NCBI GenBank assembly: GCA_965199715.1
Contig: OZ241322.1
Coordinates: 958,638-1,022,637 of the forward strand
Length of the DNA stretch: 64,000 bases
Source: Vicinamibacteria bacterium
GTDB taxonomy: Bacteria > Acidobacteriota > Vicinamibacteria > Marinacidobacterales > Marinacidobacteraceae
Direction: 5' to 3'
Within the stretch, counting starts at the first letter, position 1, and every line of letters begins with the position of its first letter. Below, in pieces: positions 14,465 to 41,939 of the stretch. The position numbers and the translations under genes are program-made. The notes beneath the pieces were generated by a model that did no database searches, was not told the DNA's origin, and was given only the letters and a program-made list of their open reading frames with translations.

Positions 14465-15007
14465 TCAGCCGGCGGATTTCGCCGGGGACCCGCGGCGGAT
14501 GCCGATGACCCTCCCCCGCTCCTTCGGGTCCGGCAGGTCGCGGACACGGCGGGCGACTTCCCGTAGCAGATCCTGGAACGGCCGCGGCATCGCCGCCGCC
14601 CGCCGGGTGCGCATGTCCACGTGGATTCCGATGTGCTCGCAAGTCGCGGCGAGCGTCGGCTCTCCATCCGGTTCGGCGGGTTCCGCGTAGAGTCGGAGGA
14701 AGGCGTGCATCAGCCGCTCGTCGTGGTCGAGAAGCTGGTGGGTGACGAAGAACGGGCGGCCCGGATGCAGCTCGCGCTGGTAGGTCACGTGATCCTCGAG
14801 CGCGAAGGTGGACCCGTGCTCGTTGTCGTTGTCCCACAGGCCGATCGCCCGCAGCATCGCCTGGGTGGCCTGGTCGAACGCCTTGCGGTAGTACACGACG
14901 TTCATGTGCCCGTTCAGGTCCGTCCAGTCGGACGCGACGACGCCCCGGTAGATGCGAAAGCCCCGCTTCGGATCGAGGACGAGCTCGGGAGGCCAGCGAA
15001 ACGGCAT
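14465..15007 (-). CDS. Hotdog-fold acyl-CoA thioesterase (4HBT/YbgC-like)
   Basis: 180-aa ORF. DLNGHMNVVYY motif typical of 4HBT-type thioesterases. Confidence 0.75.
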   Translation of the reverse strand: MPFRWPPELVLDPKRGFRIYRGVVASDWTDLNGHMNVVYYRKAFDQATQAMLRAIGLWDNDNEHGSTFALEDHVTYQRELHPGRPFFVTHQLLDHDERLMHAFLRLYAEPAEPDGEPTLAATCEHIGIHVDMRTRRAAAMPRPFQDLLREVARRVRDLPDPKERGRVIGIRRGSPAKSAG

Positions 15008-15041
15008 GGACGGAAGGCTAGCCGCCGGTAGGCTTCGCTTC

Positions 15042-17150
15042 GTGCGACGACTCCGGCTGTTTCCGATTCTGGCGCTCCTCGGCGGGTGCGGCCCCGACTG
15101 GCCCGAGCCGCCGCGGACCCGCGTCGAGGTCGTGACCGACTCGATCCACGGGGAGCGGATCGAGGATCCGTACCGCTGGCTCGAGGAACAGGACAGCCCG
15201 GAGACGCGGGCGTGGATCGACGCCCAGAACGCCTACGCGGAGCGCGTCGCGGCGGAGCCGGAGCTGCGGGCGCGGCTCGAGGCCCGGTTCGCCGAGCTCA
15301 TGGACGTGCCCCAGGTCTCCGCTCCGAGGCGGGCCGGCGAACACGAGGTCTTCACGCTGCGGCGGCCGGGGGAGCTCCAGGCGAAGATCTACCGGCGCCC
15401 CCGGGGCGAGACGGGCGACCGGCCTGACGCCGACGCGGACCACGAGCTCCTGCTGGATCCGGCGGCGCTCGGGTTCGACGAGTACGCGAGCCTCGACGTC
15501 GTGGACGTCTCGCCCGACGGGTCGCTCCTGCTCTACCGGATCCGCGACGGCGGGCTCGACGAGATCTCCGTGCGCCTGTTCGATCTCGAGACGCTCGAGG
15601 AGCGGCCCGACCGGCTGCCCGAAGCGCTCTACGGAACGATCGCCTTCGACCGCGCCGGCGAGGGCTTCTTCTACGTGCATCGGTCGCGCGTCGAAGGTCC
15701 CCGCGCCCGCTACCACCGGATCGGCGCGCCGCCCGAGGAGGACGAGCTTCTCCACGGCGAGGGGCTCGGCCCCGAGACGTTCCTGCGCGTGGAGGAGATC
15801 GAGGACGGGGCGCTGCTCCTGCTGAACGTCCAGTACGGCTGGATGCGGAACGAGATCCACGTGATGGACCGGAGCGCGGGGGAGGCGCATCCGGTGTTCG
15901 AGGGAGAGCGGGCGCACGCGACCGCTCGCCACGAGGACGGCCGGTTGCTGCTCACGACGAACCTCGACGCGCCGCGGTACCGGGTGCTGGAGATTCCGGT
16001 CGCGGGCGTCGCCCCGTCGCGCTGGTCCGACCGGTCGCGCTGGCGGGAGTGGATTCCGGAGCAGGAGCACCTCCTGCGCGGGTTCACGACCATCGGGGAC
16101 CGGACCTTCGTGAACCTGCTCGCCGACGTGAGTTCGCGCATCCTCGTCTTCGAGGGCGCCGAGGCCCCGCTGGTTCCGACGGACGAAGTTCCGCTGCCGC
16201 CCTTTCATGCGGCGTCGGTGAGCCGGCTCGGCGAGGACGGGGCGACGCTCACGCTGGCCTCGTTCACGGTCCCCGAGACCCGATACCGGCTGGATCCGGA
16301 AACGCTCGAACGCGAGCGCATGGAGCCGCCGCGCCCCGACTACGACGGCGCGGACGTCCTCGTGGAGCAGGTCTGGTACGCGTCGAAGGACGGAACCCGC
16401 GCCCCGATGTACGTGATGCGGCCGAAGGACGCGCCGCTCGACGGCGACCTTCCCCTTCTTCTCCACGGCTACGGGGGCTTCAACGTGAGCCTCGCGCCCT
16501 CGTTCCGGGCGCAGGCCGCCGTCTGGGTGGAGGCGGGCGGCGTCTTCGCGGTCGCGACGCTGCGCGGCGGCGGCGAATTCGGGGAGGACTGGCACCGCGC
16601 CGGGATGCTCGAGAACAAGCAGAACGTCTTCGACGACTTCATCGCGTCCGCCGAGTGGCTCGTCGAGAACGGCTACACGAACCCGGACCGCCTCGCGATC
16701 ATGGGCGGGAGCAACGGCGGCCTGCTGGTCGCGAGCGCGTTCACCCAGCGGCCGGAGCTGTTCCGCGCCGTGTTCTGCGGCTTCCCCGACCTGGACATGG
16801 TCCGCTTCCACGAGTTCGTCGAGACGAACAACATGCCGGCGCTGCTCGAGTACGGCAACGCCGCGCTCCCCGAGCAGTTCGCCTTTCTCCGGCGGTACTC
16901 GCCGTACCAGGCGGTGCGCGACGGAACGCCGTATCCGGCGGTGATGTTCACCCAGGGCGACCTCGACACGCGGGTGCCGCCGCTCCAGGCGCGGAAGATG
17001 GCGGCGCGGGTGCAGGCGGCGACCTCGTCCGGGCTGCCGGTCATCCTCCGGTATTCGGAGCGCGCCGGGCACGCCGGGGGCCGCAGCCGCATCCCCGACC
17101 GGGCCATGGAGACCGCGTTCCTGATGCGGCAGGTCGGCCTCGTCGAATGA
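15042..17150 (+). CDS. Prolyl oligopeptidase (S9A), lipoprotein
   Basis: GTG at 15042 gives the lipobox signal (M)[23 protein letters not shown]-terminal motif, GGSNGGLL nucleophile elbow, C-terminal Asp/His blocks. Alternative ATG at 15006 would overlap the divergent gene start. Confidence 0.9.
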
Positions 17151-18787
17151 GGGCGGCGCTCCTCGGCGTCCTCGCGCTGGGCTGCGGCGCGGCCCCGGAC
17201 GCGGACCTGATCGTCCACGGCGGAACGATCCTGACCGTGGATCCGGAATTCCGGGTCGTTTCGGCCATGGCGATCAAGGACGGAAGGATCGCGGCGCTCG
17301 GTTCGGACCGGGAGATGCTGCGGCTCGCCGGGCCGGACTCCGAGCGCATCGACCTCGCCGGGCGAACGGTCGCGCCGGGGTTCGCCGACAACCACCTGCA
17401 TTCCGCGGGCGGCGGCGACGGCGTGGACCTTTCGCGGGCGCGGACGATCGACGAGGCGCTCGCGGCCATCCGGGAGCGCGCCCTTTCCGTCGGTCCGGGC
17501 GAGCTGGTGCTCACGAATTCGGACTGGCACGAGGGCCAACTGCGCGAGCGGCGCCTCCCGCTGCGGCGCGACCTCGACGCGGCGGCGCCCGACAACCCGG
17601 TCGTCGTGGTGCGGGGCGGACACGAGTACATCCTGAACTCGGCGGCGCTCGAGCGCTGGGACGTCACGACGGACACGCCGGTTCCCGAGGGGGGCCGCAT
17701 CACCCGCTACCCCGACGGGGAGCTCAACGGCGAGCTCGTGGACGCCGCGAAGCGGCTGGTCGCGCTCCCCGAGCTTCCGCCGCGGGACCTCGAGGAGCGG
17801 ATCCGCGACCGGGCGGAGCAGTACCGGAAGCTTCATGCGGTCGGGCTCACGAGCGTCCGGCATCCGGGCGGGTCGCTCGAGGAGTACCGGATGCTCGAGG
17901 AGATGCGGCGGCGGGGCCTGCTGCGAATGCGCGTGAACTTCCTGTTCCGGATGCGCGCCCGAAGCGCGAAGGAGGCGCGGGCCGCGCTCGCCTCGTGGGG
18001 CGTCGCGCCGGACGAGGGCGACCGGTGGCTGCGCGTCGGCGGGATCAAGCTGGGCGTGGACGGCGGCTTCGAGGGGGGCCTGATGCGCGAGCCGTACGCC
18101 GAACCGTGGGGAAGGAACGGGACCTTCCACGGGCTGCGGACCATGCCCGAGGACGAGTTCGCGGAAGTCGTCACCGCGCTCGCCGCCGAGGGGTGGCGGG
18201 TCGCGACCCACGCCGTCGGCGATCTGGCGCTCGATCAGGTGCTCGACGGGTACGCGACCGCGAACCGGAAGACGCCGCTCGCCGGGAAGCGCTGGAGCGT
18301 GGAGCACGGGTTCATCGTCGCCCCGGACCAGTTCGCGAGGCTGCGGGAGCTCGACCTCGCGGTCGCCGGACAGCACCATCTCTACCTGGCGGCGCCGAGC
18401 CTCGAGCGCTACTGGGGCCGGGAGCGGGCGGAACGGGTGACGCCGATGCGCTCGTTCCTCGACGAGGGGATTCCGGTCTCGGCGGGCAGCGACGCGCCGG
18501 TGGTCCCCTACCCGCCGCTGTGGGCGCTCCACCACTTCGTCACGCGCGAGACGATCAGCGGCGGCGCGTTCGGCGCGGACCAGCGGGTGACTCCCGAAGA
18601 GGGGCTGCGGTTGTTCACGATCGACAACGCGTGGCTCACGTTCGAGGAAGCGAGCAAGGGATCGCTGGAGGTGGGCAAGCTCGCCGACTTCGTGGTGCTC
18701 TCGGGCGATCCGCGCACGGTCCCCGCCGACGGGATCGCGGTCGAGCGGACCGTGGTCGAGGGGGAGACGGTCTTCCCGGTCCGCTGA
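17147..18787 (+). CDS. Amidohydrolase-3 (YtcJ-like) metal-dependent hydrolase, lipoprotein
   Basis: ATG at 17147 overlaps the upstream stop (ATGA). Lipobox LALGCG, HxH motif DNHLHS, and C-terminal GSDAPV and GKLADFVVL blocks. Confidence 0.85.
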   Translation: MRAALLGVLALGCGAAPDADLIVHGGTILTVDPEFRVVSAMAIKDGRIAALGSDREMLRLAGPDSERIDLAGRTVAPGFADNHLHSAGGGDGVDLSRARTIDEALAAIRERALSVGPGELVLTNSDWHEGQLRERRLPLRRDLDAAAPDNPVVVVRGGHEYILNSAALERWDVTTDTPVPEGGRITRYPDGELNGELVDAAKRLVALPELPPRDLEERIRDRAEQYRKLHAVGLTSVRHPGGSLEEYRMLEEMRRRGLLRMRVNFLFRMRARSAKEARAALASWGVAPDEGDRWLRVGGIKLGVDGGFEGGLMREPYAEPWGRNGTFHGLRTMPEDEFAEVVTALAAEGWRVATHAVGDLALDQVLDGYATANRKTPLAGKRWSVEHGFIVAPDQFARLRELDLAVAGQHHLYLAAPSLERYWGRERAERVTPMRSFLDEGIPVSAGSDAPVVPYPPLWALHHFVTRETISGGAFGADQRVTPEEGLRLFTIDNAWLTFEEASKGSLEVGKLADFVVLSGDPRTVPADGIAVERTVVEGETVFPVR

Positions 18788-18789
18788 GG

Positions 18790-19170
18790 CCGGCGATTCG
18801 TCGGGCGCGAAGGGAAGGCCGCGGACCAGGTCCTCGCCGTACTGGACGTAGTGGAGAAAGGCCATCTCCGCCTCGCGGTCGGTGGGGGGCCGGCACTCGA
18901 TCACGACGGCGCGGATCCGCTGCATCGAGATCGCGTGGGCGCCGTCGCCGATGGGCTCGCGGTCCCACGACGTCCGTGGCCAGCTCCAGCGGGAAGCGGG
19001 ACTACGTCGCGAGCCCGACCCGGGCGCGCCGCCATTCCTCCTCGCAGTCGCCGGAGCAGATGACCTCGTAGCCGAGTTTCGCGGCCGGGGCGAGCGCCAG
19101 CACGACGTCCTGCCCAGGAGGTGGCGCACCCGAGCGGGAGGAGCAGCGCCGCGGCGGCGAGGCCGAGCGA
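18790..19170 (-). pseudogene. Probable decayed lipoprotein gene (two frame changes, one in-frame TAG, no start or proper stop)
   Basis: High-GC3 coding-like stretches on the minus strand in three frames. These are SLGLAAAALLLPLGC (lipobox), then QDVVLALAPAAKLGYEVICSGDCEEEWRRARVGLAT-TAG(19004..19002)-SRFPLELATDVV, then DREPIGDGAHAISMQRIRAVVIECRPPTDREAEMAFLHYVQYGEDL. Confidence 0.3.
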
Positions 19171-19206
19171 TCTTGAAGACCGGGTGGTTTCCTCCCCGGG
19201 ATGCGG

Positions 19207-20814
19207 TTATCCGAGCGTCTCCTCGAAGCCGGGAGCCCGGCGATGCCGCGTCGCCTGTTCGAATGCGTAGGCGATGCGGAGGAGCACGGGTTCGCTCCAC
19301 GCCCGCCCGAAGAACGAGATTCCGACCGGCAGGCCGGAGACGAACCCCATCGGCACGCTGACGTCGGGGTAGCCCGCGATGGCCGCCGGGCCGGCGCTGC
19401 TGCCGCCGTCCAGCCGGTCGCCCTTGATGTGGTCCGTGACCCACGGCAAGTCGCGGGTGGGCGCGACGACGGCGTCCAGCCCGTGCTCGTCCATGAGCGC
19501 GTCGACGCCGTCCTCGCGATTGCCGCGCTGAATCGCGCGCAGCGCGTCCTGGTACGCCTGGTCGGTGAGCGGGCCGCGCGCCTCGGACGCGATCATGCGC
19601 TCCTGGCCGAAGTGCGGCATCTCGACGTCCGCGTTGCGTTCGTTGAACTCGATGACGTCGGCGAGCGTGCGGACCGGCGCGTCGGGGCCGAGGGTCGCGA
19701 GGTACGCGTTCAGGTCCGCCTTGAACTCGTACTCGAGGACGAGCAGCGGCAGCTCGTCGTTCCACGCGGCCTGGGCGAGGTTCGCCGGATCGATCACTTC
19801 CGCGCCCTCGTCGCGCATCGCCTGGACGGCGTCCTCGAGGAGCGCGGTGACCCGGGGGTCGAAGCCGGTGAAGCTGCGCGCCACGCCGATCCGGGCGCCC
19901 CGGAGGCCCGCCGGGTCGAGGAATCCGGCGTAGTCGGCGTGGAAGTTCCCCTCGGAGCGCGAGGTGGCCTCGTCGCGCGGATCGACCCCCACCGCGGCGC
20001 CGAGCAGGAGCGCGGCGTCCTCGACCGTGCGGGTCATGGGGCCGGCGGTGTCCTGCGAGTGGGAGATCGGGATGATCCCGGAGCGGCTCCACAGCCCCAC
20101 CGTCGGCTTGATCCCGACGACGCCGTTGCTGGAGGAGGGGCACATGATCGAGCCGCCGGTCTCGGTCCCCACGGTGAGCGCCGCGAGGTTGGCCGACGCG
20201 GCGACTCCCGAACCGGAGCTGGATCCGCACGGGTTGCGGTCCAGCGCGTAGGGGTTCCGGCACTGCCCGCCCCGGGCGCTCCAGCCGCTCGTGGCGCGCT
20301 CGCCCCGGAAGTAGGCCCACTCGCTCATGTTCGCCTTGCCGAGGAGGACCGCGCCGGCCTCGCGCAGCCGCTCGGCCACGAACGAGTCCCGCGGCGGGAT
20401 CGAGCCCTCGAGCGCGAGGGATCCGGCGGTGGTGGTCATGCGGTCGTGGGTGTCGAGGTTGTCCTTGAGCGCGATCGGTACGCCATGGAGCGGGCCGCGG
20501 ACCGAACCGGCGCGGCGCTCGGCGTCCAGCCCGTCGGCGATCTCGAGCGCGTCCGGGTTGACCTCGATCATGGACCGCAGCTCCGGGCCCTGCCGGTCGA
20601 GGGCCTCGATCCGGCCGACGTAGGCCTCGACGATCGAGCGCGCGGTGCGCTCCCCCGACTCCATCATCCGCCGGAGGTCGGCGACCGTGGCCTCGTCGAG
20701 CTCGAACGGAGGAATCCCGGCCCGAGGAGCCTCGGCGGCGTTGGGGGAGCAACCGCCGGCGGCGGTCAGGCCCGCTCCGGCGGCGCTCGTCTTGAGAAAG
20801 GCTCGTCGATCCAT
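19207..20814 (-). CDS. Amidase-signature family amidase, Tat-exported lipoprotein
   Basis: ATG at 20814 gives MDRRAFLKTSAAGAGLTAAGGC (twin-Arg motif plus lipobox). ALKDN and GSSSGSG amidase-signature motifs. TAA stop. Confidence 0.85.
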   Translation of the reverse strand: MDRRAFLKTSAAGAGLTAAGGCSPNAAEAPRAGIPPFELDEATVADLRRMMESGERTARSIVEAYVGRIEALDRQGPELRSMIEVNPDALEIADGLDAERRAGSVRGPLHGVPIALKDNLDTHDRMTTTAGSLALEGSIPPRDSFVAERLREAGAVLLGKANMSEWAYFRGERATSGWSARGGQCRNPYALDRNPCGSSSGSGVAASANLAALTVGTETGGSIMCPSSSNGVVGIKPTVGLWSRSGIIPISHSQDTAGPMTRTVEDAALLLGAAVGVDPRDEATSRSEGNFHADYAGFLDPAGLRGARIGVARSFTGFDPRVTALLEDAVQAMRDEGAEVIDPANLAQAAWNDELPLLVLEYEFKADLNAYLATLGPDAPVRTLADVIEFNERNADVEMPHFGQERMIASEARGPLTDQAYQDALRAIQRGNREDGVDALMDEHGLDAVVAPTRDLPWVTDHIKGDRLDGGSSAGPAAIAGYPDVSVPMGFVSGLPVGISFFGRAWSEPVLLRIAYAFEQATRHRRAPGFEETLG

Positions 20815-20851: not shown

Positions 20852-21733
20852 TCAGGCCCCCTTCCCGTCCCAGCCGTCATCCGGTCGGTCGAACCAGACG
20901 TGGACCTGGCCGGTCCCGATCGCGTTCTCGTAGTCCGAGTACATCCGCCCCGGGGCGCGGCAGGCCGCGCCGCCGACCGCGCCGAGCGCCATGAGGAAGT
21001 GCCCGAACCGCCCCTCGGGGGCGTGGCGGGCGAAGTCCGGCATGGTCTCGACGATCCGGTCGTGGCGTCCGGCCCGCATCCACTCGAGCCGCTCCTCGTC
21101 GGCGGCGCGCGCCTCGGGAGTGCGCACGTGCGCCGGATCGGAGGCCTCGTGCAAATGCAGCTCGGAGAGCGGCCAGAAGCGGTGGCTCATCCCGCCCGAG
21201 GCGAGGAACACGACCCGGCGGCCGGTCTCGCGGACCGCGTCGCCGAGCGCGGCGCCCATGGCGAGGAAGTCGTCGGGGTATCCGGTCTGGGCGCAGCTCA
21301 CCGAGACGACCCGCTCGCCCCGATGCAGATAGTGGACGAGGTTGATCGTCGGGTAGTGGACCGGCAGGTGGGGGTCGGCCGAGGCGTGGGCCCGCGTCCC
21401 CCGGCGGTTCGCGGCGGCGGCGGCGGCTTCGGCCAGCTCGGGATCGCCGGGATAGTCGTAGGCGACGCCATGCAGCCCGCGGGGCAACTCCTCCGAGGTG
21501 TAGATCCCGCGGCGGCGCTCCTGGGCGGCCAGCAAGTGCTCGACGGTGCTGAACCAGTGGGCGTCGAGGATGACGACGGTCTCGGGCGCGAGCCGGTCGA
21601 GGACCTCGGCGCGCAGGCGGCGCAGGCCGGGAACGAGGCTGATCTCCTTGCCCTCGTTGAGGCCGCGGCGCACCGGCTCGGGGAGCATGATCGTCGGGAC
21701 GTGCGAGACGAGGCCGAAGCCGGCGACCGGCAT
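20852..21733 (-). CDS. Class III (LigB-type) extradiol dioxygenase, HpcB/HpaD-like (homoprotocatechuate 2,3-dioxygenase family)
   Basis: ATG at 21733. Colinear with my recollection of E. coli HpcB: SHVPTIML, DAHWF, YTSEELP, YDYPGDPEL, ASGGMSHRF, IGTGQVHV. Confidence 0.85.
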   Translation of the reverse strand: MPVAGFGLVSHVPTIMLPEPVRRGLNEGKEISLVPGLRRLRAEVLDRLAPETVVILDAHWFSTVEHLLAAQERRRGIYTSEELPRGLHGVAYDYPGDPELAEAAAAAANRRGTRAHASADPHLPVHYPTINLVHYLHRGERVVSVSCAQTGYPDDFLAMGAALGDAVRETGRRVVFLASGGMSHRFWPLSELHLHEASDPAHVRTPEARAADEERLEWMRAGRHDRIVETMPDFARHAPEGRFGHFLMALGAVGGAACRAPGRMYSDYENAIGTGQVHVWFDRPDDGWDGKGA

Positions 21734-22530
21734 CAGGCGCCTCCCTCCGGGTCGAGGGTGCGGCCCCCGCGGAACGTGAACCCGACGCGCCGGAAGAAGC
21801 CGCCGAGCATCTCGACCGGGCGGAGCGCGTCCAGCTCCTCGGTCGGCGAGGGGAACGCCTTCAGGTCGGCGTCGCCGATCCACGCGGTCTCCGCCTCCAC
21901 GTCCTCCGAGCGGACCGTCACCAGCTCGCGCAGCGAGTCGGAGCCGTCGGCCTCCACGCTCGGCATCAGCCGATGGTGGAGCATCGGGTGGGCGTTCACG
22001 AAGCCGACGTCCTCCGCGGAGCCGGCGATGGTGAATCGGGCCTCGAGCAGCCGGCGGGAGCCGGCGGCGAGGGTCGCGCCGAAGCGCCCGCCCGGGGCCA
22101 GCCTCGGTCCGGCGCGCCCGATGAGCGCCGGTCGGGTCATCCGGATCTCGCCGAGCTTCTTGGGATATCCCTGGAAGTGGCCGCGGACGAGCGAGGCGTC
22201 GGTGTCCACCCAGATGAAGGCGCAGCGCGACCAGTCGCGCCCCCGATACCGGCAGCGGACCACGAGGAGGCACTCCCGGTACTGGGCGCGGATCGGGTCG
22301 AGGAGCTCCTCGCCGGACTCGCCGCACGCCTGCCAGTCGGCCCAGATGGCGGCGACGGCGTCCGGACGGTCGGCGACCGGCTCGAGCGGCGGCGGGAGAA
22401 GCGCCGCCACCGAGCCCTCGGGCGCGAGGTACTCGATCGTGAGCATCTCGCCCGAGTAGTGCCACGGCGGCGCGGCGAGCAGCGAGGCGCGCCCGGCGGC
22501 GGTCCGGGGAAACAGGAATCCGGCGCTCAT
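21733..22530 (-). CDS. Acetoacetate decarboxylase (ADC) family protein
   Basis: ATG at 22530. N-terminal PPWHYSGEMLTIEY ... LLPPPLEP pattern typical of the ADC family. TGATG overlaps at both ends. Confidence 0.75.
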   Translation of the reverse strand: MSAGFLFPRTAAGRASLLAAPPWHYSGEMLTIEYLAPEGSVAALLPPPLEPVADRPDAVAAIWADWQACGESGEELLDPIRAQYRECLLVVRCRYRGRDWSRCAFIWVDTDASLVRGHFQGYPKKLGEIRMTRPALIGRAGPRLAPGGRFGATLAAGSRRLLEARFTIAGSAEDVGFVNAHPMLHHRLMPSVEADGSDSLRELVTVRSEDVEAETAWIGDADLKAFPSPTEELDALRPVEMLGGFFRRVGFTFRGGRTLDPEGGA

Positions 22531-23699
22531 CAGGCGTTCCACCGCACCCGGACGCTCTTCGGCCCCCGGAACTCGAAGCCGCGCAGCTCGACCGGCTCGT
22601 CCGGATCCAGCCGGAGGCCGGGCAGGTTCGCGAAGAGCCGCTCGGTTCCGACGCGGATCACCTGGCGGCCCAGCCATTCGCCGACGCAGCGATGCGCGCC
22701 GAGCGCGAAGGCCGCGTTCCCGCCCTCGGCCCGCGCCGGATCGATCCGCTCCGGATTCCGGAAGCGGGCGGGATCGAGGTTCGCCGCCCGAAGGATTCCC
22801 GAGACCAGCGCGCCCGGCGGCAGCCGCTCGCCGCCCAGCTCGGTCTCGCGGGTCGTCGCGCGGGTGATCGTCCCGACCGGGGAGTACCGCCGGAGCACCT
22901 CGTCCACGAGCCGGCGCATGGCCGGGGCGCCGCCGAGGGCGTCGTCCCGCAGCCGGTCGTCCGCGAGCATGGTCCAGGCCACGAGGCCGATCCCGTCCCG
23001 GGGTTCGTTGATCCCCCCGGAGATCATGAGCCGCACGTCGTTCACGATCTCGGCGGGCGCGAGGCCCTCGTCCGCCTCGAGGAAGTGGAGCAGGCCGGCG
23101 GTCTCCGGGCGCGACCGGAGCTCGTCCAGCCGGGCGAGGACGGCGCGCTCGACCGCGTCCGCAGCCTCGCGTCCGACGGCGAAGGCTTCGGGGTCGCCCC
23201 CGAAGTTGGCGACGCCGGCGCACCGGCCCTCGCACCAGTCCCAGACTTGGCGGAAGTCGTGCGCGTCGAGGCCGAGCACGGTCGCGAGCGACCCGGCGCT
23301 CAGGAGCGCGGCGTACCCGGCGACGAGGTCCGCCTCGCCGTCGTCGCGCATGTCGGCGATGAGCGCGTCGCACATCCGGGGAAGCTCCCGCTCGACGAAC
23401 GTTCCGCTGCGGCCCGCCCGCAGGAAGGGCGGCTTCATCGCCCGCTGGAGCCGGGAGCACGCCGGCGGATCGAGGGTGAGCATGTTCTCGCCCAGGGTGC
23501 GCGCGAGGAAGCTCGGCTCGGTGCGGGCGCTGAAGACCTCGGGGCGGTCCTCCATCGTCCGGACGTCGTCCCAGCGGGTCACGAACCACATGTCGAGCGC
23601 GGGCACGAACTCCGCCGGAGCCTCCTCGCGCAGCCGGGCGAGGAGGGGGTCCGGGTCGCGGTCGAGGGCTTCCGGCGTGACGGATTCGGCGAAGGTCAC
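22530..23699 (-). CDS. Cytochrome P450
   Basis: 389-aa ORF with GTG start directly after the upstream TGA. Cys-ligand loop FALGAHRCVGEWL and ExxR (EVLRRY). I-helix reads GGINEP, lacking the usual Thr. Confidence 0.9.
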   Translation of the reverse strand: MTFAESVTPEALDRDPDPLLARLREEAPAEFVPALDMWFVTRWDDVRTMEDRPEVFSARTEPSFLARTLGENMLTLDPPACSRLQRAMKPPFLRAGRSGTFVERELPRMCDALIADMRDDGEADLVAGYAALLSAGSLATVLGLDAHDFRQVWDWCEGRCAGVANFGGDPEAFAVGREAADAVERAVLARLDELRSRPETAGLLHFLEADEGLAPAEIVNDVRLMISGGINEPRDGIGLVAWTMLADDRLRDDALGGAPAMRRLVDEVLRRYSPVGTITRATTRETELGGERLPPGALVSGILRAANLDPARFRNPERIDPARAEGGNAAFALGAHRCVGEWLGRQVIRVGTERLFANLPGLRLDPDEPVELRGFEFRGPKSVRVRWNA

Positions 23700-24974
23700 T
23701 CAGAGATAGGGCGTGTACTCGCGCCGCTCCCAGTCGCTCACGTGGGCGCGGAAGCGCTCCCACTCGCGCCGCTTGACGGTCACGTGCATGCGGGTGAACT
23801 CCTCGCCGAGCGCGGCGACGAGAGCGGAGTCGGCTTCGAGGTCGGCGAGGGCGCGCTGGAGGTCGGGCGCGACCGTGACCTTCGTTTCGGAGTCCTCGAG
23901 GCAGTCGCCGGTCTCTTCCGGCGGCGGGGCGAGACGCTCGCCGATTCCGAGACGGGCGGCGAAGAGCGTGGCGGCCACCGCGACGTGGGGGCCGCAGGCG
24001 CCGTCCGCCAGCCGGTGCTCGATGCGGCTCCCCTCGCCGCGTTCGAGCGGGATCCGCACCGCGCAGCCGCGGTGGTCGTGGCCCCAGTTGGCCCAGTAGC
24101 CGCTCATCTGGCCGGGGCGGAGCCGGCGGTAGGCGTTCACCGTGGGCGCGACCGCGCCGGCGAGCCCGGCGTGGTGCCGGAGCAGCCCCGCGACGGCGGA
24201 CCAGGCGAGCGGCGAGATCCCGCCGTCCCCGCCCGGATCATCGAAGACGTTGCGCCCGTCCTCCTCGAGACTCAGGTTCACGTGGAGTCCGGAGCCGCCC
24301 CGGTCGCCGAAGGGCTTCCCCATGAAGGTCAGGTGGTGGCCGCGCCGCGCCGCCACCTCGCGGGCGAGCAGCTTGAACAGGAAGGCCTCGTCGGCGGCGG
24401 CGAGGGCGTCCTTCTTCGCCAGCGTGAGCTCGAACTGGCCGTCGTCGTACTCGCTGTGGAAGGACTCCAGATGGATTCCGGCGGCGTCGGCGGCGTCGAG
24501 CACGGCCTCCATGACCCCGTCGGGGTCGGCGAACGGGCCCGAGCCGTACACGTGGGAGCCGGGGGTGCGGACCGACCGGTAGCCGCCGTCGCCGTCGGGA
24601 GCGAGGAGGTACGCCTCCAACTCCATCCCCACGACCGGGCGGCGGCCGTCGGCCTCGTGGGCGGCGACGGCGCGCTGGAGCACGCGGCGCGGGGACCGCT
24701 CGAGCGGCCCGCCGTTCTGCTCGAGGTCGGCGACCACGACGCCGTGGCCAGGGTCCCAGCCGGGCCGAATCCGATCGGGGTCGAAGACCGCGCGCATGTC
24801 GGGGAGGCCGTCGAGGAGCCCGGAATTCGGGTAGGCGTCCATCTCGCGGTCGAAGCCGAGCGCGAAGGTGGCGACGCAATGGCCGGTGGCCGCCGCGCCC
24901 GGACGGAGCAGCTTCCCGCGGGCGAGCCCGAGGTGGTCGGGCCAGAGCGCCCGGACGCGGCGGATGTCGCTCAC
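23700..24974 (-). CDS. Glutamine synthetase-like gamma-glutamyl ligase (PuuA/GlnA3-like type, not canonical GlnA)
   Basis: GTG at 24974 (GTGA overlap). GSGLHVNLSL, NAYRRL and AVRIP blocks of the Gln-synt_C catalytic domain. 424 aa. Confidence 0.85.
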   Translation of the reverse strand: MSDIRRVRALWPDHLGLARGKLLRPGAAATGHCVATFALGFDREMDAYPNSGLLDGLPDMRAVFDPDRIRPGWDPGHGVVVADLEQNGGPLERSPRRVLQRAVAAHEADGRRPVVGMELEAYLLAPDGDGGYRSVRTPGSHVYGSGPFADPDGVMEAVLDAADAAGIHLESFHSEYDDGQFELTLAKKDALAAADEAFLFKLLAREVAARRGHHLTFMGKPFGDRGGSGLHVNLSLEEDGRNVFDDPGGDGGISPLAWSAVAGLLRHHAGLAGAVAPTVNAYRRLRPGQMSGYWANWGHDHRGCAVRIPLERGEGSRIEHRLADGACGPHVAVAATLFAARLGIGERLAPPPEETGDCLEDSETKVTVAPDLQRALADLEADSALVAALGEEFTRMHVTVKRREWERFRAHVSDWERREYTPYL

Positions 24975-25555
24975 GGCGCGGGTTGTACCACCCTCGGGCG
25001 CAGGACGAGGAAGGCGATCGTCCCGCTGGCGAGGAAAAAGTAGAGCGGGTAGATCACGATGGCGAACTCGAAGCGGTCCACTGCGACGAGGTTGATGGCG
25101 TTCGCCGCGACGAAGAGCCCCCACGCGAGGCGATCCTCGGTCCAGGGCGCCTCCCACGCCTTCCGGATGGTCGGCAGCGCGCCCGCGAAGTCCACACCGA
25201 GCGTGGTGACGAGAGCGGCGACCGGCGTGTCGAGGAGCCACCAAAGGATCAGGCCGGCGCCCGCTCCCATGAGGCAGCCGCGGTCGAGGCGGGTCGCGCC
25301 GCCCTCGCCGTGGCGGATGCTCAGCAGGGCGGTCGCGAACGAGGCGACGAAGTAGGCGACCGGGACCCAGATCGTCGTGTCCGCGCCGGAAAACCAGTAG
25401 CTCGCGAGCAGGACCGCCCCGGTCACGCTCCAGATCCACCACGTGGCCCGATTCGGGCGGGTTCGGCCCCGGAGCGTGGAGACGAAGTAGGGGAGGAACG
25501 CGAGCAGCGAGAGAAGTCCGGCCGCCGCGCCGGCCGCCGCCGAGAACGAGGGCAC
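24971..25555 (-). CDS. About 6-TM membrane protein of unknown function (first gene of the operon)
   Basis: GTG at 25555. 194 aa with 6 hydrophobic segments. Stop overlaps the GS-like start. Confidence 0.55.
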   Translation of the reverse strand: MPSFSAAAGAAAGLLSLLAFLPYFVSTLRGRTRPNRATWWIWSVTGAVLLASYWFSGADTTIWVPVAYFVASFATALLSIRHGEGGATRLDRGCLMGAGAGLILWWLLDTPVAALVTTLGVDFAGALPTIRKAWEAPWTEDRLAWGLFVAANAINLVAVDRFEFAIVIYPLYFFLASGTIAFLVLRPRVVQPAP

Positions 25556-25592
25556 GAGGCGCGAGCCTAACTCGGGGTACGCTCGGGGGCCG

Positions 25593-27077
25593 ATGCGCCG
25601 ACTCGTCCTCTTCGCGCTCCTGGCCGTGGGATGCGCCCCCGAGCCCGTCGCGACCCGGGCCGAGCTCGAAACGCTCTTCGACGACATCCTCGAGAAGACC
25701 GAGCGCCGCGAGGCGTTCTCGCCGGTCAAGGAGGCGCGACTGGACTTCTCGCCGCTCGACGGGATGCGCCGCCTTCGGGAGGAGTTCGTCGGCGCGCGGA
25801 CGGAGGCCGAACTGTGGTGGGCGCTCGTGAAGCTCAGCAACGCCCGCCGCGACCGCCACCTGTCGGTGCGCCCGGCGGAGGGCGGCCTCGCGGCTCCCGG
25901 CGCTCCGGCGCTCGCCGCCCCGATCCTCGTGCTCGCGGACTTCGCCGACCTCGACCGGCCGTCGTTCTTCGACGCGGAGAGCGGGGACCGGATCGTCGAG
26001 GTGAACGGCCGAACCATCCCGGAGTACGTCGCCGCGTTCCGGCCGTGGATCCGCCACTCGTCACGGCACGGGCTGTACTGGTGGATGGCGCGGGAACTGC
26101 CGCGGATCGTCCCCGGCGTTCCTCCGGAGCTCTACCGGGAGACGCTCGACCTCGCGCTCGAGGACGACGCGGGCGAGCGGTACGAGCGGTCGCTGGCCTA
26201 CGGGGACTGCGCGACCCACTGCCGGGAGCTGCGACCCGAGTATCCGGGGTTCGAGCCGCTGCTGGAGCGCGAGAACTTCCACGTCTTGCGGAGCGCGGAC
26301 GACGGCGTCGTGCTGCTGCGCTGGCTGGACTTCGAGTTCAGTCTGATCAAGGACGTGATGGATCTCATGGAGCTCGCCGAAACCGACGAGCTCCTCGATC
26401 ACGACCTCGTCATCGACGTGCGCGGGAGCAGCGGCGGCTCCCACGGGGCCTACGCGATCCAGCGGCTCGTGAACGAGCCGTTCCGGACCACGTTCGGAAA
26501 CGTGCGGATCAGCGACGCGGGCGAGGCGCTCATCGAGCGCTTCGCCGCGATGGAGCCCGACGGCGGCGCGCCGGAGATCCTCGGGCTGAACCTGAGCCGG
26601 GAATGGCTCGTCGAGTGGGCGCGGACCGACGGCCGGGAATCCGTCCGGCGCGGCTACGAGTACACGCCCCCGACCCCGTTCAAGCTGGCCCACCTGCCCC
26701 GGGACGCGAGCGGGACGCTCGATCCGGCGCCGACGCACTTCCGGGGACGGACGGTCATCCTGAGCGGGCCGCACGGCGGCTCCCACCTCGACCAGTTCGT
26801 CTCGATGTTCAAGGACAACGATCTGGCCGTGGTCGTCGGGATGCCGCCGGGCGGCTACAGCAACACCTGGGAGCACGAGGAGACGCTGGTTCTGCCCGGC
26901 TCCGGGCGGCCGCTGGCCACGTTCATGTGGAACGTCGGGCACACGCTGCGCCCCAACGGGGAGATCCTCGAGGGCAATCCGGCCATGCCGGACGTCCCGC
27001 TGCCGCTGACGCGGGCGAACTTCCGGACCTGGGACCGGGAGCTGCTGGATGCGGCTCTCGAGGTCCTGCGCGACTGA
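25593..27077 (+). CDS. S41-family (tail-specific protease-like) peptidase, lipoprotein
   Basis: 494-aa ORF. Lipobox LLAVGCA. DVRGSSGGS block typical of the S41 catalytic domain. Confidence 0.7.
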   Translation: MRRLVLFALLAVGCAPEPVATRAELETLFDDILEKTERREAFSPVKEARLDFSPLDGMRRLREEFVGARTEAELWWALVKLSNARRDRHLSVRPAEGGLAAPGAPALAAPILVLADFADLDRPSFFDAESGDRIVEVNGRTIPEYVAAFRPWIRHSSRHGLYWWMARELPRIVPGVPPELYRETLDLALEDDAGERYERSLAYGDCATHCRELRPEYPGFEPLLERENFHVLRSADDGVVLLRWLDFEFSLIKDVMDLMELAETDELLDHDLVIDVRGSSGGSHGAYAIQRLVNEPFRTTFGNVRISDAGEALIERFAAMEPDGGAPEILGLNLSREWLVEWARTDGRESVRRGYEYTPPTPFKLAHLPRDASGTLDPAPTHFRGRTVILSGPHGGSHLDQFVSMFKDNDLAVVVGMPPGGYSNTWEHEETLVLPGSGRPLATFMWNVGHTLRPNGEILEGNPAMPDVPLPLTRANFRTWDRELLDAALEVLRD

Positions 27078-27367
27078 TCGGTCGGCGGCCCAGTCCTCCT
27101 CGCCACCGTGGACGGTCGGCTCGGCGCACCACCGCTCCCGCATCGGCGCGACCTGGTCCATCGCGTCCCCGGGGAAAGAGAGCGCATCCTCCAGCACGAG
27201 CCGGTCGAGCTCCTTGCGGACGGGATCCTCATGGGCGCGGTGCGCGGGGAGGAATTCGCGGCCCGACCCGGTGCTGCGAGAATGGAAGAACCCATGGACA
27301 CCCGCTTCTCCGCCGGCAAGCTGGCGGCGGAGCGCCACCGCAGGCGGCCGAGGCGGCGCATCCGGGC

Positions 27368-28465
27368 GTGACCGGCGGCCGGCTCCACTCGCTGGACGTC
27401 TTTCGAGGCGCCACGGTCGCCGCGATGATCCTCGTGAACAACCCGGGGAGCTGGAGCCACGTCCATCCGCCGCTCCGGCACGCTCCCTGGCACGGGTGGA
27501 CGCCGACCGACCTGATCTTCCCCTTCTTCCTGTTCATCCTCGGAGTCGCGATCCCGTTCTCGCTCGAACGGCGGGCGGAAGCCTCCCCGGGGGCGTTCCT
27601 GGGCCTGATCCTCCGGGTCGCGCGACGCAGCCTGATCCTCGTCGCGCTGGGCCTTCTTCTCGCGGCGTGGCCGTTCTTCGGAATCGACGGCGTGCGCCTT
27701 CCGGGCGTGCTCCAGCGGATCGGCGTGGTCTATCTGGTCGCGGGGACCGCGGCGCTGACGCTTCCGAAGCGCTGGCTCCTCGCGTTCGCCGCGGCCGGTC
27801 TCGGCGGAACCGCGGCCGTTCTCGCGTTCGTCCCGGCCCCGGGCGGGATTCCCGGCGATCTCGCCCCGGGGACGAACCTCCCCGCGTGGCTGGACCGACT
27901 CCTCATCCCCGGTCCGCTCCACCAGGTCACGTGGGATCCGGAAGGGGCCCTCTCGACGGTCCCGGCGATCGCGACCGCGCTGATCGGCGTGTTCGCGGGA
28001 CGGCTGCTGCGCTCCGAACGGGAGGCGCAGCGGAAGCTCGCGACGCTGTTCGCCTGGGGGTTCGCCCTCGCCGCGGCCGGCTGGGCGTGGGACGCCTGGC
28101 TTCCCATCAACAAGAACCTGTGGACGAGCTCCTACGCGCTCTTCACCGCCGGGATCGCGTGCTCCTGCCTCGGCGCGGCCATGCTGCTCACCGACTTCCG
28201 GACCCCGCCGGCATGGACGCGGCCTTTCGCGGCCGCCGGCCGGAACGCGATCCTCGTCTTCGTGGGCTCGGGGCTGCTCACCAAGACGATATCGCTCTTT
28301 CCCGCCCCCGGAGACGCCTCGGCCTACGCCTGGACGTGGCGGACGCTGTTCGCGTCGTGGCTCGGGCCGCTGAACGGATCGCTCGGATTCGCGCTCGCGA
28401 ACGCAGCGCTGTGGCTCGGGGTCGCCGCGTGGCTGGACCGGCGGGGCGTCCGGTTGAAGGTCTGA
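27368..28465 (+). CDS. Heparan-alpha-glucosaminide N-acetyltransferase-like membrane acyltransferase (DUF1624/DUF5009)
   Basis: GTG at 27368. RLHSLDVFRGATVAAMILVNNPG N-terminal motif and about 10 TM segments. Confidence 0.75.
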   Translation: MTGGRLHSLDVFRGATVAAMILVNNPGSWSHVHPPLRHAPWHGWTPTDLIFPFFLFILGVAIPFSLERRAEASPGAFLGLILRVARRSLILVALGLLLAAWPFFGIDGVRLPGVLQRIGVVYLVAGTAALTLPKRWLLAFAAAGLGGTAAVLAFVPAPGGIPGDLAPGTNLPAWLDRLLIPGPLHQVTWDPEGALSTVPAIATALIGVFAGRLLRSEREAQRKLATLFAWGFALAAAGWAWDAWLPINKNLWTSSYALFTAGIACSCLGAAMLLTDFRTPPAWTRPFAAAGRNAILVFVGSGLLTKTISLFPAPGDASAYAWTWRTLFASWLGPLNGSLGFALANAALWLGVAAWLDRRGVRLKV

Positions 28466-29350
28466 TGGAGCCGGACCCCAGGAACTCCGCGATCCTCGTC
28501 CACGTGGACGGGGCGCTGCCGCCCCGCGCGGAGGCGCGGGCGTCCGTGTTCGACAGTTCGGCGCGGGCCGGAGACACCGTGTGGGAAGGGCTGCGGGTCG
28601 TCCGGGGGCGGGTGGCCGACCTCGACCGGCATCTGGACCGACTCGGCTCACGCCATGGCGTTCGCCGGCGTCCCGGATCGGAACGCGGTCCGGGCGGCGC
28701 TGTTCGAGACCCTTCGCGCCAACCGCATGACCGACGGGGTCCACGTCCGCCTCACGCTCTCCCGGGGCGAGAAGGTCACCTCGGGAATGAGCCCGGAATG
28801 GAACCGCTCCGGCTGCATCCTCATCGTGCTCGCGGAGTGGAAACCGCCGGCGCACGACCCCGGTGGCGTCCGGCTGATCACGTCCTCGGTCCGGCGCAAC
28901 AGCCCGCAGTGCATCGACTCGCGCATCCACCACGCGAACCTCGTCAACAACATCCTCGCCAAGATCGAAGCGAACCACGCCGGGGCGGACGACGCGCTCA
29001 TGCCGGACCTCGCGGGCTTCGTGGCCGAGACCAACGCCACGAACGCGTTCCTCGTCCGGGACGGCGCGCCCTTCACGCCGCACGCCCACAGTTGCCTGCC
29101 CGGGGTGACCCGGGCCGTGACGATCGAGGCCGCCCGGGAGGACGGCGTTCCGGTGTTCGAGAAGAACCTGACGCTGACCGAGGCCCATGTCGCCGACGAG
29201 ATGTTCACGACCGGCGCCATGGGAGGAATCTCGCCCGTGCTGGAGGTGGACGGTCGGCGCGTCGGCGACGGCGTCACCGGCCCGATCACGCTGCGCCTGA
29301 AGGACCTCCTGCTCGGGCGGGCGTTTCGGGACGGGACGCCGGTGGACTGA
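28465..29350 (+). pseudogene. Class IV aminotransferase (branched-chain / D-amino-acid aminotransferase family) interrupted by a +1 frame change near 28645
   Basis: ATG at 28465 (TGATG overlap). The first ~60 codons (ILVHVDGALPPRAEARASVFDSSARAGDTVWEGLRVV...HLDRL) are in frame 1. The rest (..AHAMAFAGVPDR... to TGA at 29350) is in frame 2. Total length is 886 nt, i.e. 3n+1. Confidence 0.7.
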
Positions 29351-29353
29351 GGC

Positions 29354-29788
29354 TCAGCCGTCGCAGCGGGCGACGAAGACCAGGTCGTCGTCCTCCTCCA
29401 TGTAGTGGACCGCGTAGGCGCAGGCGCCCGAGGCGTTCGCGAACTTGCCGGTCCCGCCCACCAGCCGGAACACGCCGAGCACGCTGCTGCCCACCTCGGC
29501 GCCGCCGCCGATCCGGGTCGCGGCGGCGTGGAGGTGGTCCTCCTCCGGATCGTGGAGGTCGCAGTCCGCCTGGATCTCGACTTCGGAGCCCTCTTGTTTC
29601 ACGGCGACGACGGCGCCGGCGCGGACGACGACCCCGACCCCGTGCAGCGGGCCCGCGGTCACGGCCCGGCCCGGACGGGACACGGTCCCCTACTCGTGCT
29701 TGGCGACGAGCACGAGGTGGAAGCCGGCGTCCTGGGCCGCCGCCGCGCCGGCGGCGAGGAGAATGCAAGCGATCGCGAGTCCCTTCAT
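29354..29788 (-). pseudogene. Secreted dirigent/allene-oxide-cyclase-barrel-like protein with an in-frame TAG at 29692..29690
   Basis: ATG at 29788 overlaps the S9 peptidase stop (ATGA). MKGLAIACILLAAGAAAAQDAGFHLVLVAKHE-TAG-GTVSRPG...LVGGTGKFANASG...CDG all lie in one frame (145 codons). Confidence 0.55.
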
Positions 29789-33118: not shown

Positions 33119-33137
33119 GTCGCTCCCATCCTATGCG

Positions 33138-34633: not shown

Positions 34634-34931
34634 GCTTGGCCGCGTCCCCCATCATGTCGGGGTTCCACGGCGGCTCCCACACCAGATCCACCTTGACCTT
34701 CCTCACGCCGGAGACCCGGCCGACCTTCTGCTCCACCTCGGGCGGAAGGGTTCCCGCCACCGGGCAGGCGGGCGAGGTCAGCGTCATCTCGACGGCCACG
34801 TCGCCGCCGTCGGCCACGTCCACCTTGTACACGAGGCCGAGCTCGTAGATGTCCACCGGGATCTCGGGGTCGTAGCAGGTCTTCAGCGCATCCACCACGT
34901 CGGCGTGGATGCGTTCCTCGGTTTCGGTCAC
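34614..34931 (-). CDS. sufT: Fe-S assembly protein SufT (DUF59/MIP18 family)
   Basis: 105-aa ORF. DPEIPVDIYELGL and LTSPACPV motifs. Last gene of the suf operon. Confidence 0.85.
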   Translation of the reverse strand: MTETEERIHADVVDALKTCYDPEIPVDIYELGLVYKVDVADGGDVAVEMTLTSPACPVAGTLPPEVEQKVGRVSGVRKVKVDLVWEPPWNPDMMGDAAKLKLGLL

Positions 34932-34941
34932 GGGCGCCCTC

Positions 34942-37825: not shown

Positions 37826-37832
37826 GGGGGTC

Positions 37833-40045: not shown

Positions 40046-40047
40046 GG

Positions 40048-40494: not shown

Positions 40495-40569
40495 GTTGGG
40501 GGTCAACCGGCCTCGGCGAGGGGTCGGCGGCGCGCGGCCGCCGGACGGGAACTCGGCTTCGCTAAATCC

Positions 40570-41912: not shown

Positions 41913-41939
41913 CGCGAGACCGCCGCGGCGGATCCGCAC

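Follow-up and report, generated by a model that had tools for sequence, protein, structure and literature searches.

A conserved operon joining a glutamine-synthetase-like ligase, a cytochrome P450 and an extradiol dioxygenase in Vicinamibacteria: candidate part of a gamma-glutamyl-dependent pathway for arylethylamines

The window analyzed here, a 64-kb stretch of DNA with 73% GC from a Vicinamibacteria bacterium (contig OZ241322.1), carries at 20852-25555 on the minus strand five open reading frames (ORFs) which translate cleanly and with zero internal stops. In the direction of transcription they encode a membrane protein (mem), a glutamine-synthetase-like (GS-like) ligase, a cytochrome P450 (P450a), an enzyme of the acetoacetate decarboxylase superfamily (ADC-like) and a class III extradiol dioxygenase (LigB). 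An initial annotation of this DNA had described five ORFs joined without spacers, and the coordinates and all four junctions were found as it gave them: mem and the GS-like gene share a GTGA overlap (24971-24974), the TGA of the GS-like gene abuts the GTG of P450a (23697-23702), and the junctions P450a/ADC-like (22528-22532) and ADC-like/LigB (21731-21735) are ATGA-type overlaps of one base. The domain assignments hold as well (Pfam: Gln-synt_C, p450, ADC, LigB), and the quoted motifs were located at residues 227 (GSGLHVNLS) and 280 (NAYRRL) of the ligase and at residues 228 (GGINEP) and 331 (FALGAHRCVG) of P450a. The GC content of the third codon positions (GC3) amounts to 0.93-0.95 in each of the five ORFs, and the GC pattern over the codon positions is that of real genes. 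The five genes form one compact operon. Short overlaps are ordinary for operons of high-GC genomes, and in relatives the genes are close-set, yet not always overlapping (gene boundaries there are approximate, from tblastn); the conservation across relatives is the stronger argument for the operon as a unit. A scan for promoters and terminators gave nothing usable, sigma-70 consensus scans being uninformative in this GC range.

Recurrent proteins of the Acidimicrobiia clusters, used as queries against the window, revealed a second module. It is situated 6-9 kb upstream of the operon, at 31871-34633, and comprises a further cytochrome P450 (P450b), an HpcE/HpaG-like enzyme of the FAH family and a PuuD-like hydrolase of the Peptidase_C26 family (C26). 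The initial annotation was correct in its five genes, and the system extends beyond the coordinates given there. P450b is 54% identical to the P450 encoded between the ADC-like and LigB genes in Acidimicrobiia; in other phyla it is a core member of the set (Table 1), and it is predicted to be a hydroxylase of the conjugate discussed below. Copies 62-72% identical to the FAH of the window occur in the majority of ADC-anchored loci from other phyla. FAH and C26 overlap by 4 nt (ATGA) in the window, which indicates translational coupling. The best NCBIfam match of C26 is gamma-glutamyl-GABA (gamma-aminobutyric acid) hydrolase with 94.5 bits, under the cut-off of 266, and the protein is predicted to be a gamma-glutamyl-amide hydrolase. 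Modules of C26, FAH and P450b recur in loci L003, L004, L044, L048, L188 and others, and in L003 and L004 the module stands directly upstream of mem-GS-ADC-LigB with P450b next to it, so that both modules are adjacent there.

Table 1. Genes of the two modules and the downstream amidase, with their occurrence in long loci (at least 15 kb) anchored on the ADC-like gene, counted within flanks of 10 kb.
Gene	Product	Position	Strand	Length and scores	Vicinamibacteria loci	Loci of other lineages
mem	7-helix membrane protein, first operon gene	24971-25555	-	194 aa	20/24	0/40
GS-like	GS-like ATP-dependent ligase	23700-24974	-	424 aa; Gln-synt_C 282 bits	21/24	23/40
P450a	Cytochrome P450	22530-23699	-	389 aa; p450 47.5 bits	18/24	3/40
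ADC-like	ADC-superfamily enzyme, MppR/Sbi00515 type	21733-22530	-	265 aa; PF06314 175.7 bits		
LigB	Class III extradiol dioxygenase	20852-21733	-	293 aa; PF02900 89 bits	24/24	33/40
P450b	Cytochrome P450, CYP125/124/268-like; I-helix AGNETT with canonical acid-alcohol pair	31871-33118	-	8vxi 361 bits	2/24	36/40
FAH	FAH-family enzyme, HpcE/HpaG-like	33087-33887	+	PF01557 187 bits; HpaG-C-term 171.5 bits; 1gtt (E. coli HpcE) 238 bits	2/24	24/40
C26	Peptidase_C26 / class I amidotransferase-type hydrolase, PuuD-like	33884-34633	+	PF07722 191.6 bits	2/24	19/40
amidase	Amidase, Tat-exported, probably lipid-anchored	19207-20814	-	Amidase 304 bits; PRK08137 690 bits	21/24	0/40

The start codon of FAH is uncertain (33072, 33087 or 33138) and the gene is divergent to P450b (TTG at 33118), the annotated starts overlapping or nearly touching. 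A second divergent pair is formed by mem and a gene for an S41-like lipoprotein peptidase, whose starts are only 37 nt apart (25556-25592). The tightness of the two pairs (25556-25592; 33072-33138) implies that promoters lie inside coding sequence or that starts are mis-set.

A total of 410 relatives of the ADC-like gene were found. The closest copies, with 76-90% identity, derive from metagenome-assembled genomes (MAGs) of Vicinamibacteria / Candidatus Marinacidobacterium (Acidobacteriota). For the locus survey 24 loci of the Vicinamibacteria type and 40 of other lineages, mostly Acidimicrobiia, were available. A LigB gene lies no more than 10 kb from the ADC-like gene in 57 of these 64 loci, and the set mem-GS-P450a-ADC-LigB is present in at least 18 of the 24 Vicinamibacteria loci; the neighborhood described in the initial annotation is therefore conserved in related genomes. 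The low counts of P450b, FAH and C26 in Vicinamibacteria follow from the 10 kb flank limit, since in the window the second module is 6-9 kb off. Besides Acidobacteriota, the carriers are Acidimicrobiia as well as further uncultured lineages, of which many apparently derive from sponge or soil samples, and overall the gene set extends over hundreds of species-level genomes in several phyla. A biosynthetic cluster of the Streptomyces type, a thought prompted by the 73% GC, was ruled out by the Vicinamibacteria relatives and by housekeeping genes in the window. The presence of SUF genes, the glycine cleavage P protein and RND pumps characterizes the window as ordinary chromosome. The window does not derive from an actinomycete.

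Several relatives carry a foreign-looking insertion of 2-3 kb in the gap between the GS-like and P450a genes (L006, 6220-7443; L014, 3860-6573; also L005, L011 and L022), which splits the operon that is tight in the window. One inserted ORF starts like an AAA_15/OLD-type ATPase. The insertions of L006 and L014 were considered as missing pathway genes or redox partners and rejected, as they look like AAA-ATPase/defense-type genes, judged by the N-terminus of one ORF and without a family scan.

The GS-like protein scores below every NCBIfam equivalog cut-off, with 234 vs 470 bits for GS type III, 221 vs 650 for PuuA (NF045547), of which it is accordingly no orthologue by score, and 198 vs 429 for GlnA (TIGR00653). 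Bit scores to these models and to PDB entries, which stood in for a tree with IpuC, TdnQ and GlnA2-4, place it nearest to archaeal GS (178 bits) and glutamate-methylamine ligase (169 bits), followed by NpaA1 (8wwu, 117 bits) and PA5508 (95 bits). The active-site residues were compared by aligning the protein with GlnA and PuuA of E. coli. The ligands of metal, ATP and glutamate are invariant (E129, E131, E212, E220, H269, R321, R339, R344, E357 and R359), and the residues of the ammonium pocket are replaced (D50A, S53N, Y179V as in PuuA, and E327M, hydrophobic throughout the clade), as is H271N. The enzyme is hence not a canonical ammonium-assimilating GlnA, an assignment that would have spoken against the initial annotation. 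It looks like a competent ligase in a lineage of its own and is predicted to be a gamma-glutamyl-(organic amine) synthetase. A gene for a GATase1 or C26 hydrolase adjoins the GS-like gene in most GS-anchored loci. A locus search anchored on the C26 hydrolase also found C26-GS pairs to be common; the generic motif swamped that search, and close relatives were missed. The idea of a gamma-glutamylated amine was strengthened by these PuuD-like and GATase1 hydrolases, which travel with the set, and by the decarboxylase genes present in many loci, as described below.

P450a had been noted for an I-helix that lacks the usual Thr. The motif GGINEP is indeed present and is kept in every locus with a P450a orthologue; the protein is, on the other hand, not a generic hydroxylase by its relatives, as the nearest solved structures are aromatic O-demethylases. 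The top 18 PDB matches are 6g71 (174.6 bits; 29.5% identity over 376 columns), SyoA (8u09, 132.6 bits), 9ia1 (125.4 bits) and GcoA entries (about 118 bits). Both 6g71, which we take to be CYP1232, and 9ia1 are listed in the PDB simply as cytochrome P450. Members of one CYP family share at least 40% identity, and P450a therefore falls outside the family of 6g71. GGINEP aligns with GGLNEP of 6g71, GGLQEP of SyoA and GAMQEP of GcoA, so that the "missing Thr" turns out to be a hallmark of a clade with an amide-acid pair. The Gln-Glu pair of CYP255 is essential for peroxide-driven O-demethylation, and CYP255 and CYP1232 are both said, in a single sentence, to demethylate aromatics (PMC11842817). 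No redox partner of a P450 was seen among the annotated proteins of the window, in which small ferredoxin ORFs were not specifically searched for. The amide-acid pair offers one explanation for the lack of an adjacent redox partner, which would fit peroxide-driven use as in the peroxide shunt of SyoA (PMC11842817). Differences from CYP1232 and CYP255 remain, for P450a belongs to another CYP family, lacks a GcoB-type reductase and would act on an amide conjugate. From its sequence relatives P450a is predicted to yield a catechol from the methoxy-phenol form of the conjugate. It is absent from L002 and L004, in which the GS-like gene directly precedes ADC-like and LigB, and is thus accessory or dispensable.

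The ADC-like protein has the PF06314 fold, in keeping with the family named in the initial annotation, and it is not a true acetoacetate decarboxylase (PRK02265, 30 bits; cut-off 150). It belongs to the aldolase-dehydratase type of MppR and Sbi00515. The MppR model (TIGR04460) gave 208 bits, and the best PDB matches were MppR itself (4jm3, 191 bits, 38% identity) and 4zbo (162 bits). K124 in the motif GYPKK aligns with the Schiff-base lysine of MppR (GMPKQ) and of 6eej (GFPKK). The enzyme shares fold family and lysine with MppR of enduracididine biosynthesis and with the pyruvate aldolase-dehydratase Sbi00515. It is nevertheless no MppR orthologue, its score being well under the MppR cut-off of 380 bits and its neighbors being GS, P450 and LigB genes, among them an extradiol dioxygenase, instead of PLP (pyridoxal phosphate) enzymes of the MppP/MppQ type. 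For the MppR/Sbi00515 group binding of 2-oxo acids, hydration/dehydration and aldol chemistry with pyruvate have been described (PMC7820114, summarizing Burroughs 2013). In Saccharolobus solfataricus the genes Sso1221 and Sso1222, proposed aldolases, adjoin Sso1223, which encodes a catechol 2,3-dioxygenase, and are induced 77- to 82-fold by phenol (PMC7820114); this is the only precedent we found for ADC-like genes at an extradiol dioxygenase. The ADC-like enzyme of the operon is predicted to bind a 2-oxo acid as a Schiff base and to act as hydratase/aldolase, possibly as decarboxylase, on a ring-fission product.

LigB scored 130 bits against HpaD_Fe (TIGR02298), under the cut-off of 316, 76 bits against 8iq8 (28% identity) and 62 bits against AmnB. 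Residues H11, H59, H184 and E240 are identical to those of 8iq8 at the aligned positions; according to the LigB literature they correspond to the iron ligands (two His and one Glu) and the catalytic His. By sequence comparison the enzyme is closest to LigB-type homoprotocatechuate 2,3-dioxygenase, and its score does not make it an HpaD orthologue.

Further gene arrangements came from related clusters, in part from loci anchored on the GS-like gene. In the compact clusters L188-L192, L203, L207 and L214 the genes FAH, ALDH (aldehyde dehydrogenase), LigB and ADC-like follow each other beside the genes for the GS-like ligase, P450b and C26, and in L188 the gene ends overlap. The best match of the L188 ALDH is HpaE with 493 bits. 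FAH-ALDH-LigB corresponds to the order hpaG-hpaE-hpaD of E. coli, where the full operon reads hpaG-E-D-F-H-I, and the ADC-like gene stands where hpaF/H/I would be. No genes of the HpaH/HpaI type were seen among the annotated recurrent neighbors, for which no dedicated search was made, and the HpaE-like gene occurs only in relatives. A gene for a PLP-dependent enzyme like aromatic-amino-acid decarboxylases (AADC) lies beside the GS-like or ADC-like gene in L194, L200, L205, L206, L218, L044, L065 and others; its best PDB matches are a Trp decarboxylase (4obu, 202 bits) and DOPA (3,4-dihydroxyphenylalanine) decarboxylases (7xin, 181 bits, and another with 160 bits). Further recurrent neighbors encode a GATase1-type hydrolase, an SSADH-like ALDH, a flavoprotein with the acyl-CoA-dehydrogenase fold, an alpha/beta hydrolase, an F420/LLM oxidoreductase and ABC transporters of the Liv and ProW types. 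In Acidimicrobiia the flavoprotein family (f16; L056 15395-16726 and homologues) is a repeated neighbor of the GS-like gene. Among its best relatives of known structure are 4kcf/3m9v and 3mxl, read by us as the amino-sugar N-oxygenases KijD3 and ORF36; instead of a dehydrogenase it may represent a flavin-dependent oxygenase that acts on the amine or the ring.

What the genes encode, the conservation of their catalytic residues and their linkage across phyla are shown by these results. They point to the breakdown of an arylethylamine (tyramine, dopamine or O-methyl-dopamine type) by a catabolic system of which the operon would be one half: a homoprotocatechuate-type meta-cleavage that operates on a gamma-glutamylated substrate and ends in a Puu-like manner. 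We give this reading slightly less than an even chance. Substrate, order of steps and the roles of the single enzymes are inferred as follows. The GS-like ligase would join the amine, at the expense of ATP, to the gamma-carboxyl group of glutamate. P450b would hydroxylate the ring of the conjugate to the catechol, and P450a would supply the same catechol by stripping the O-methyl group of methoxylated congeners, possibly with peroxide. The HpaD-like LigB would then open the ring next to the diol (proximal extradiol cleavage), an HpaE-like ALDH, whose gene is present in related clusters and not in the window, would oxidize the semialdehyde, and the HpcE-like FAH would isomerize and decarboxylate the product. 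With the resulting 2-oxo acid the ADC-like enzyme would form a Schiff base, and hydration and retro-aldol cleavage would give pyruvate and gamma-glutamyl-4-aminobutanal. Oxidation by an ALDH would lead to gamma-glutamyl-GABA, from which the PuuD-like C26 would release GABA and glutamate.

The penultimate products follow from the transfer of Hpa chemistry to a CH2CH2NH-gamma-Glu side chain in place of CH2COOH, which yields pyruvate and the Puu intermediate gamma-glutamyl-4-aminobutanal. The tag would be attached before ring opening because ring-fission products with a free aminoethyl group cyclize spontaneously. The scheme accounts at once for the coupling of a PuuD-like to an HpcE-like gene, for the ADC-like enzyme in place of HpaH/I and for the protection of the amine. 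The working hypothesis of the initial annotation (gamma-glutamylation, catechol formation by a P450, ring cleavage and an ADC-like step) appears broadly right and was incomplete, as it did not include the accessory, O-demethylase-like nature of P450a, the second module and the set of the other phyla. A more far-reaching version is offered only tentatively and would rather be expected to fail than to hold: that the tag is kept through hydroxylation or O-demethylation and extradiol cleavage, that the ADC-like enzyme acts as hydratase-aldolase, that carbon leaves as pyruvate and GABA, and that the whole is a widespread route for tyrosine-derived arylethylamines.

Several observations weigh against the proposed pathway. 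None of the enzymes reaches the equivalog cut-off of the named family nearest to it, and genes for an aldehyde dehydrogenase and an aromatic-amino-acid decarboxylase are missing from the window. P450b resembles omega-hydroxylases of sterols and lipids, not known phenol hydroxylases, P450a is as distant from CYP1232 (6g71) as its 29.5% identity indicates, and, as mentioned above, no redox partner was seen among the annotated proteins. Moreover, the SSADH-like dehydrogenase of some clusters (571 bits) would also fit the classical route to succinic semialdehyde, and many GS-like homologues pair solely with a GATase1 gene while ADC and LigB genes are tens of kb off. Finally, the mem family is not specific for the pathway.

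The strongest competitor is an early removal of the tag. A P450 would hydroxylate the carbon next to the amide nitrogen, and the resulting carbinolamide would fall apart into glutamine and (hydroxy)phenylacetaldehyde; the classical homoprotocatechuate path would then lead to pyruvate and succinic semialdehyde, and the C26 or GATase1 hydrolase would be a safety valve, a role which has reportedly been proposed for AtdA2 against the build-up of conjugates in aniline degradation. This course of events would make good use of the SSADH-like dehydrogenase in several clusters and of HpaD-, HpaE- and HpaG-like genes in hpa order, and CYP125-type P450s are oxidizers of aliphatic carbons. The translational coupling of FAH and hydrolase agrees with it less well, and neither HpaH/HpaI-type nor HpaBC-type genes were seen among the annotated recurrent neighbors (no dedicated search was made), where the ADC-like gene takes the place of HpaH/HpaI. 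Furthermore, the hpa-like enzymes all diverge from the canonical ones, as expected with a different side chain. We consider early tag removal unlikely, though not to be dismissed lightly.

Improbable is a coincidence of two unrelated functions, in which the GS-like ligase and the hydrolase would serve the detoxification of polyamines or ethanolamine, in the manner of GlnA2-4 and PuuA, and LigB, FAH and ADC-like would degrade an ordinary catechol. In its favor, many GS homologues of the clade pair only with a GATase1 gene and the PuuA model ranked second in NCBIfam. However, linkage of the families recurs, with a differing order of the genes, in Acidobacteriota and Acidimicrobiia as well as in other MAGs, the gene overlaps cross the supposed divide (GS-P450-ADC-LigB; FAH-C26), and the AADC-like gene abuts the GS-like gene.

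A biosynthetic cassette appears quite improbable as well. Here the glutamyl group would shield the amine during the ring opening of a DOPA- or dopamine-like unit, and an MppR-like enzyme would cyclize the product to a heterocyclic building block for a small specialized metabolite. Heterocycles such as betalamic acid and propylproline units are known to arise from DOPA after extradiol cleavage, and the closest solved relative of the ADC-like enzyme, MppR (191 bits), is a biosynthetic cyclase/aldolase. Yet no nonribosomal peptide synthetase, polyketide synthase, methyltransferase or exporter is found nearby, the partners are catabolic (HpaE-like and SSADH-like dehydrogenases, PuuD-like hydrolase, Liv- and ProW-type importers), and the set, whose chromosomal context is conserved, is found in hundreds of species-level genomes from several phyla. 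Least of all we expect a pathway for amines borne directly on the ring (aniline, aminophenol, anisidine, naphthylamine) and glutamylated as by AtdA1/NpaA1, a highly improbable reading for which speak the precedent of GS-like ligases in arylamine degradation (PMC11335346, PMC4539516) and some similarity of LigB to 2-aminophenol dioxygenase (62 bits), and against which stand the lower score of the ligase to NpaA1 than to ordinary GS (117 vs 178 bits), the absence of a Rieske dioxygenase among the annotated neighbors, and the AADC-like genes and HpaD/E/G-like enzymes, which point to a two-carbon side chain.

Returning to the arylethylamine pathway, the system would work like Puu and Ipu (tag, oxidize, untag) and like Hpa, and by its sequences it is an orthologue of none, every named model being missed by a wide margin. 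With the Puu (putrescine utilization) pathway of E. coli, made up of the ligase PuuA, the oxidase PuuB, the aldehyde dehydrogenase PuuC and the hydrolase PuuD, it shares the GS-like ligase and the Peptidase_C26 hydrolase, an ammonium pocket remodeled in the same places (Y179V; position 327 not acidic) and the predicted late intermediates gamma-glutamyl-4-aminobutanal and gamma-glutamyl-GABA. It differs in scores well under the cut-offs (221 vs 650; 94.5 vs 266), in the lack of a PuuB-type oxidase and in the connection to P450s and ring cleavage. With the Hpa meta-cleavage operon the HpaD-like LigB and the HpcE/HpaG-like FAH of the window and, in related clusters, the HpaE-like ALDH in the order FAH-ALDH-LigB are shared; all of them are under the cut-offs here, the ADC-like gene occupies the place of HpaF/H/I, and a ligase and a hydrolase are coupled to the set. 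The isopropylamine (Ipu) pathway of Pseudomonas sp. KIE171 employs the ligase IpuC, the P450 IpuD and the hydrolase IpuF. Its logic of glutamylation, oxidation by a P450 and hydrolysis is the same, a likeness drawn from descriptions of the pathway; the amine degraded there is aliphatic, and the route includes no ring cleavage. IpuA/C are mentioned in PMC11335346. In the degradation of aniline and 1-naphthylamine, GS-like ligases of the AtdA1/NpaA1 type ("GoaS") act together with Rieske dioxygenases. Glutamylation of an aromatic amine before oxygenation and a GATase1-type hydrolase as partner are common to these pathways and the present one, whereas here the ligase is distant (117 bits to NpaA1), P450s replace the Rieske enzymes and the amine is probably located on the side chain. 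A full-text literature search found no description of such a gene combination or pathway, in agreement with the initial annotation, which knew of no equivalent; many subscription papers lie beyond the coverage of that search, and absence from it is not proof.

The remaining protein of the operon, mem, has no Pfam (even with E up to 10) or NCBIfam family. Its length of 194 aa had been given correctly, and instead of about six transmembrane helices seven are predicted by the confident AlphaFold2 model (pLDDT, predicted local distance difference test, 92.6). The first 14 Foldseek matches are all KDEL receptors, cystinosin or SWEET proteins (TM-score 0.47-0.65, E 0.015-1.3). By its modeled fold mem belongs in all likelihood to the PQ-loop/SWEET/KDEL-receptor class, a fold typical of transporters of small molecules, and is a candidate transporter, for which a role in the pathway is plausible, not specific. 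It adjoins the GS-like gene in 20 of the 24 Vicinamibacteria loci and in none of the 40 others, and the link to the pathway is thus limited to Vicinamibacteria; homologues in Polyangiaceae, cyanobacteria and Patescibacteria stand in unrelated contexts. The mem family (P0001-P0120) comprises proteins of about 190-220 aa with at least 250 homologues in Acidobacteriota, Patescibacteria, cyanobacteria and Polyangiaceae, all of them named hypothetical, and about 30 invariant positions, including P34, R36, W39, W42, K132 and E140.

Downstream of the operon, 37 nt 3' of LigB, starts the amidase gene (20814). Its product begins with MDRRAFLK...AGGC, a Tat (twin-arginine translocation) signal with a lipobox-like Cys. 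The initial annotation had called this amidase Tat-exported and maybe unrelated, which agrees with its linkage within Vicinamibacteria alone (Table 1). In Vicinamibacteria relatives it is often 1-5 kb off owing to insertions. Its membership in the operon is doubtful; a possible role would be the extracellular release of amines from amides. Around the operon stand genes for exported hydrolases (15006-20814, 25593-31860), which include two of the S9 prolyl-oligopeptidase type, an Amidohydro_3 protein, the Tat-lipoprotein amidase and the S41-like peptidase, as well as an HGSNAT-like acyltransferase, and which suggest a lifestyle of peptide and amide scavenging. A class IV aminotransferase ORF at 28655-29350 has only 231 aa with a Pfam match from model position 36, so that truncation or a wrongly called start is possible. 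At 40590-41939 an AAA_21/AAA_15 (AbiEii/OLD-like) ATPase gene adjoins the SUF genes (34614-40506), and the GC content declines to 0.67 over 38-40 kb, in the sufB region. Two AcrB-type RND pumps (1054 and 1043 aa) flank the gene for a membrane-fusion protein at 52883-60716.

If the proposed pathway is true, it would join gamma-glutamyl amine catabolism and homoprotocatechuate meta-cleavage, two textbook pathways, in one route. For the MppR/Sbi00515 group this would be the first catabolic role to be defined, and a large clade of ADC-like proteins without assigned function would gain a physiological role. With P450a the peroxygenase-type aryl O-demethylases, which are of interest for the valorization of lignin, would have a new relative that lacks a partner. 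Tyramine and phenethylamine have recently been reported as sponge signaling molecules (bioRxiv 10.64898/2026.02.14.704838), and the pathway would reveal a way in which biogenic amines might be consumed by abundant uncultured symbionts and bacteria of the soil.

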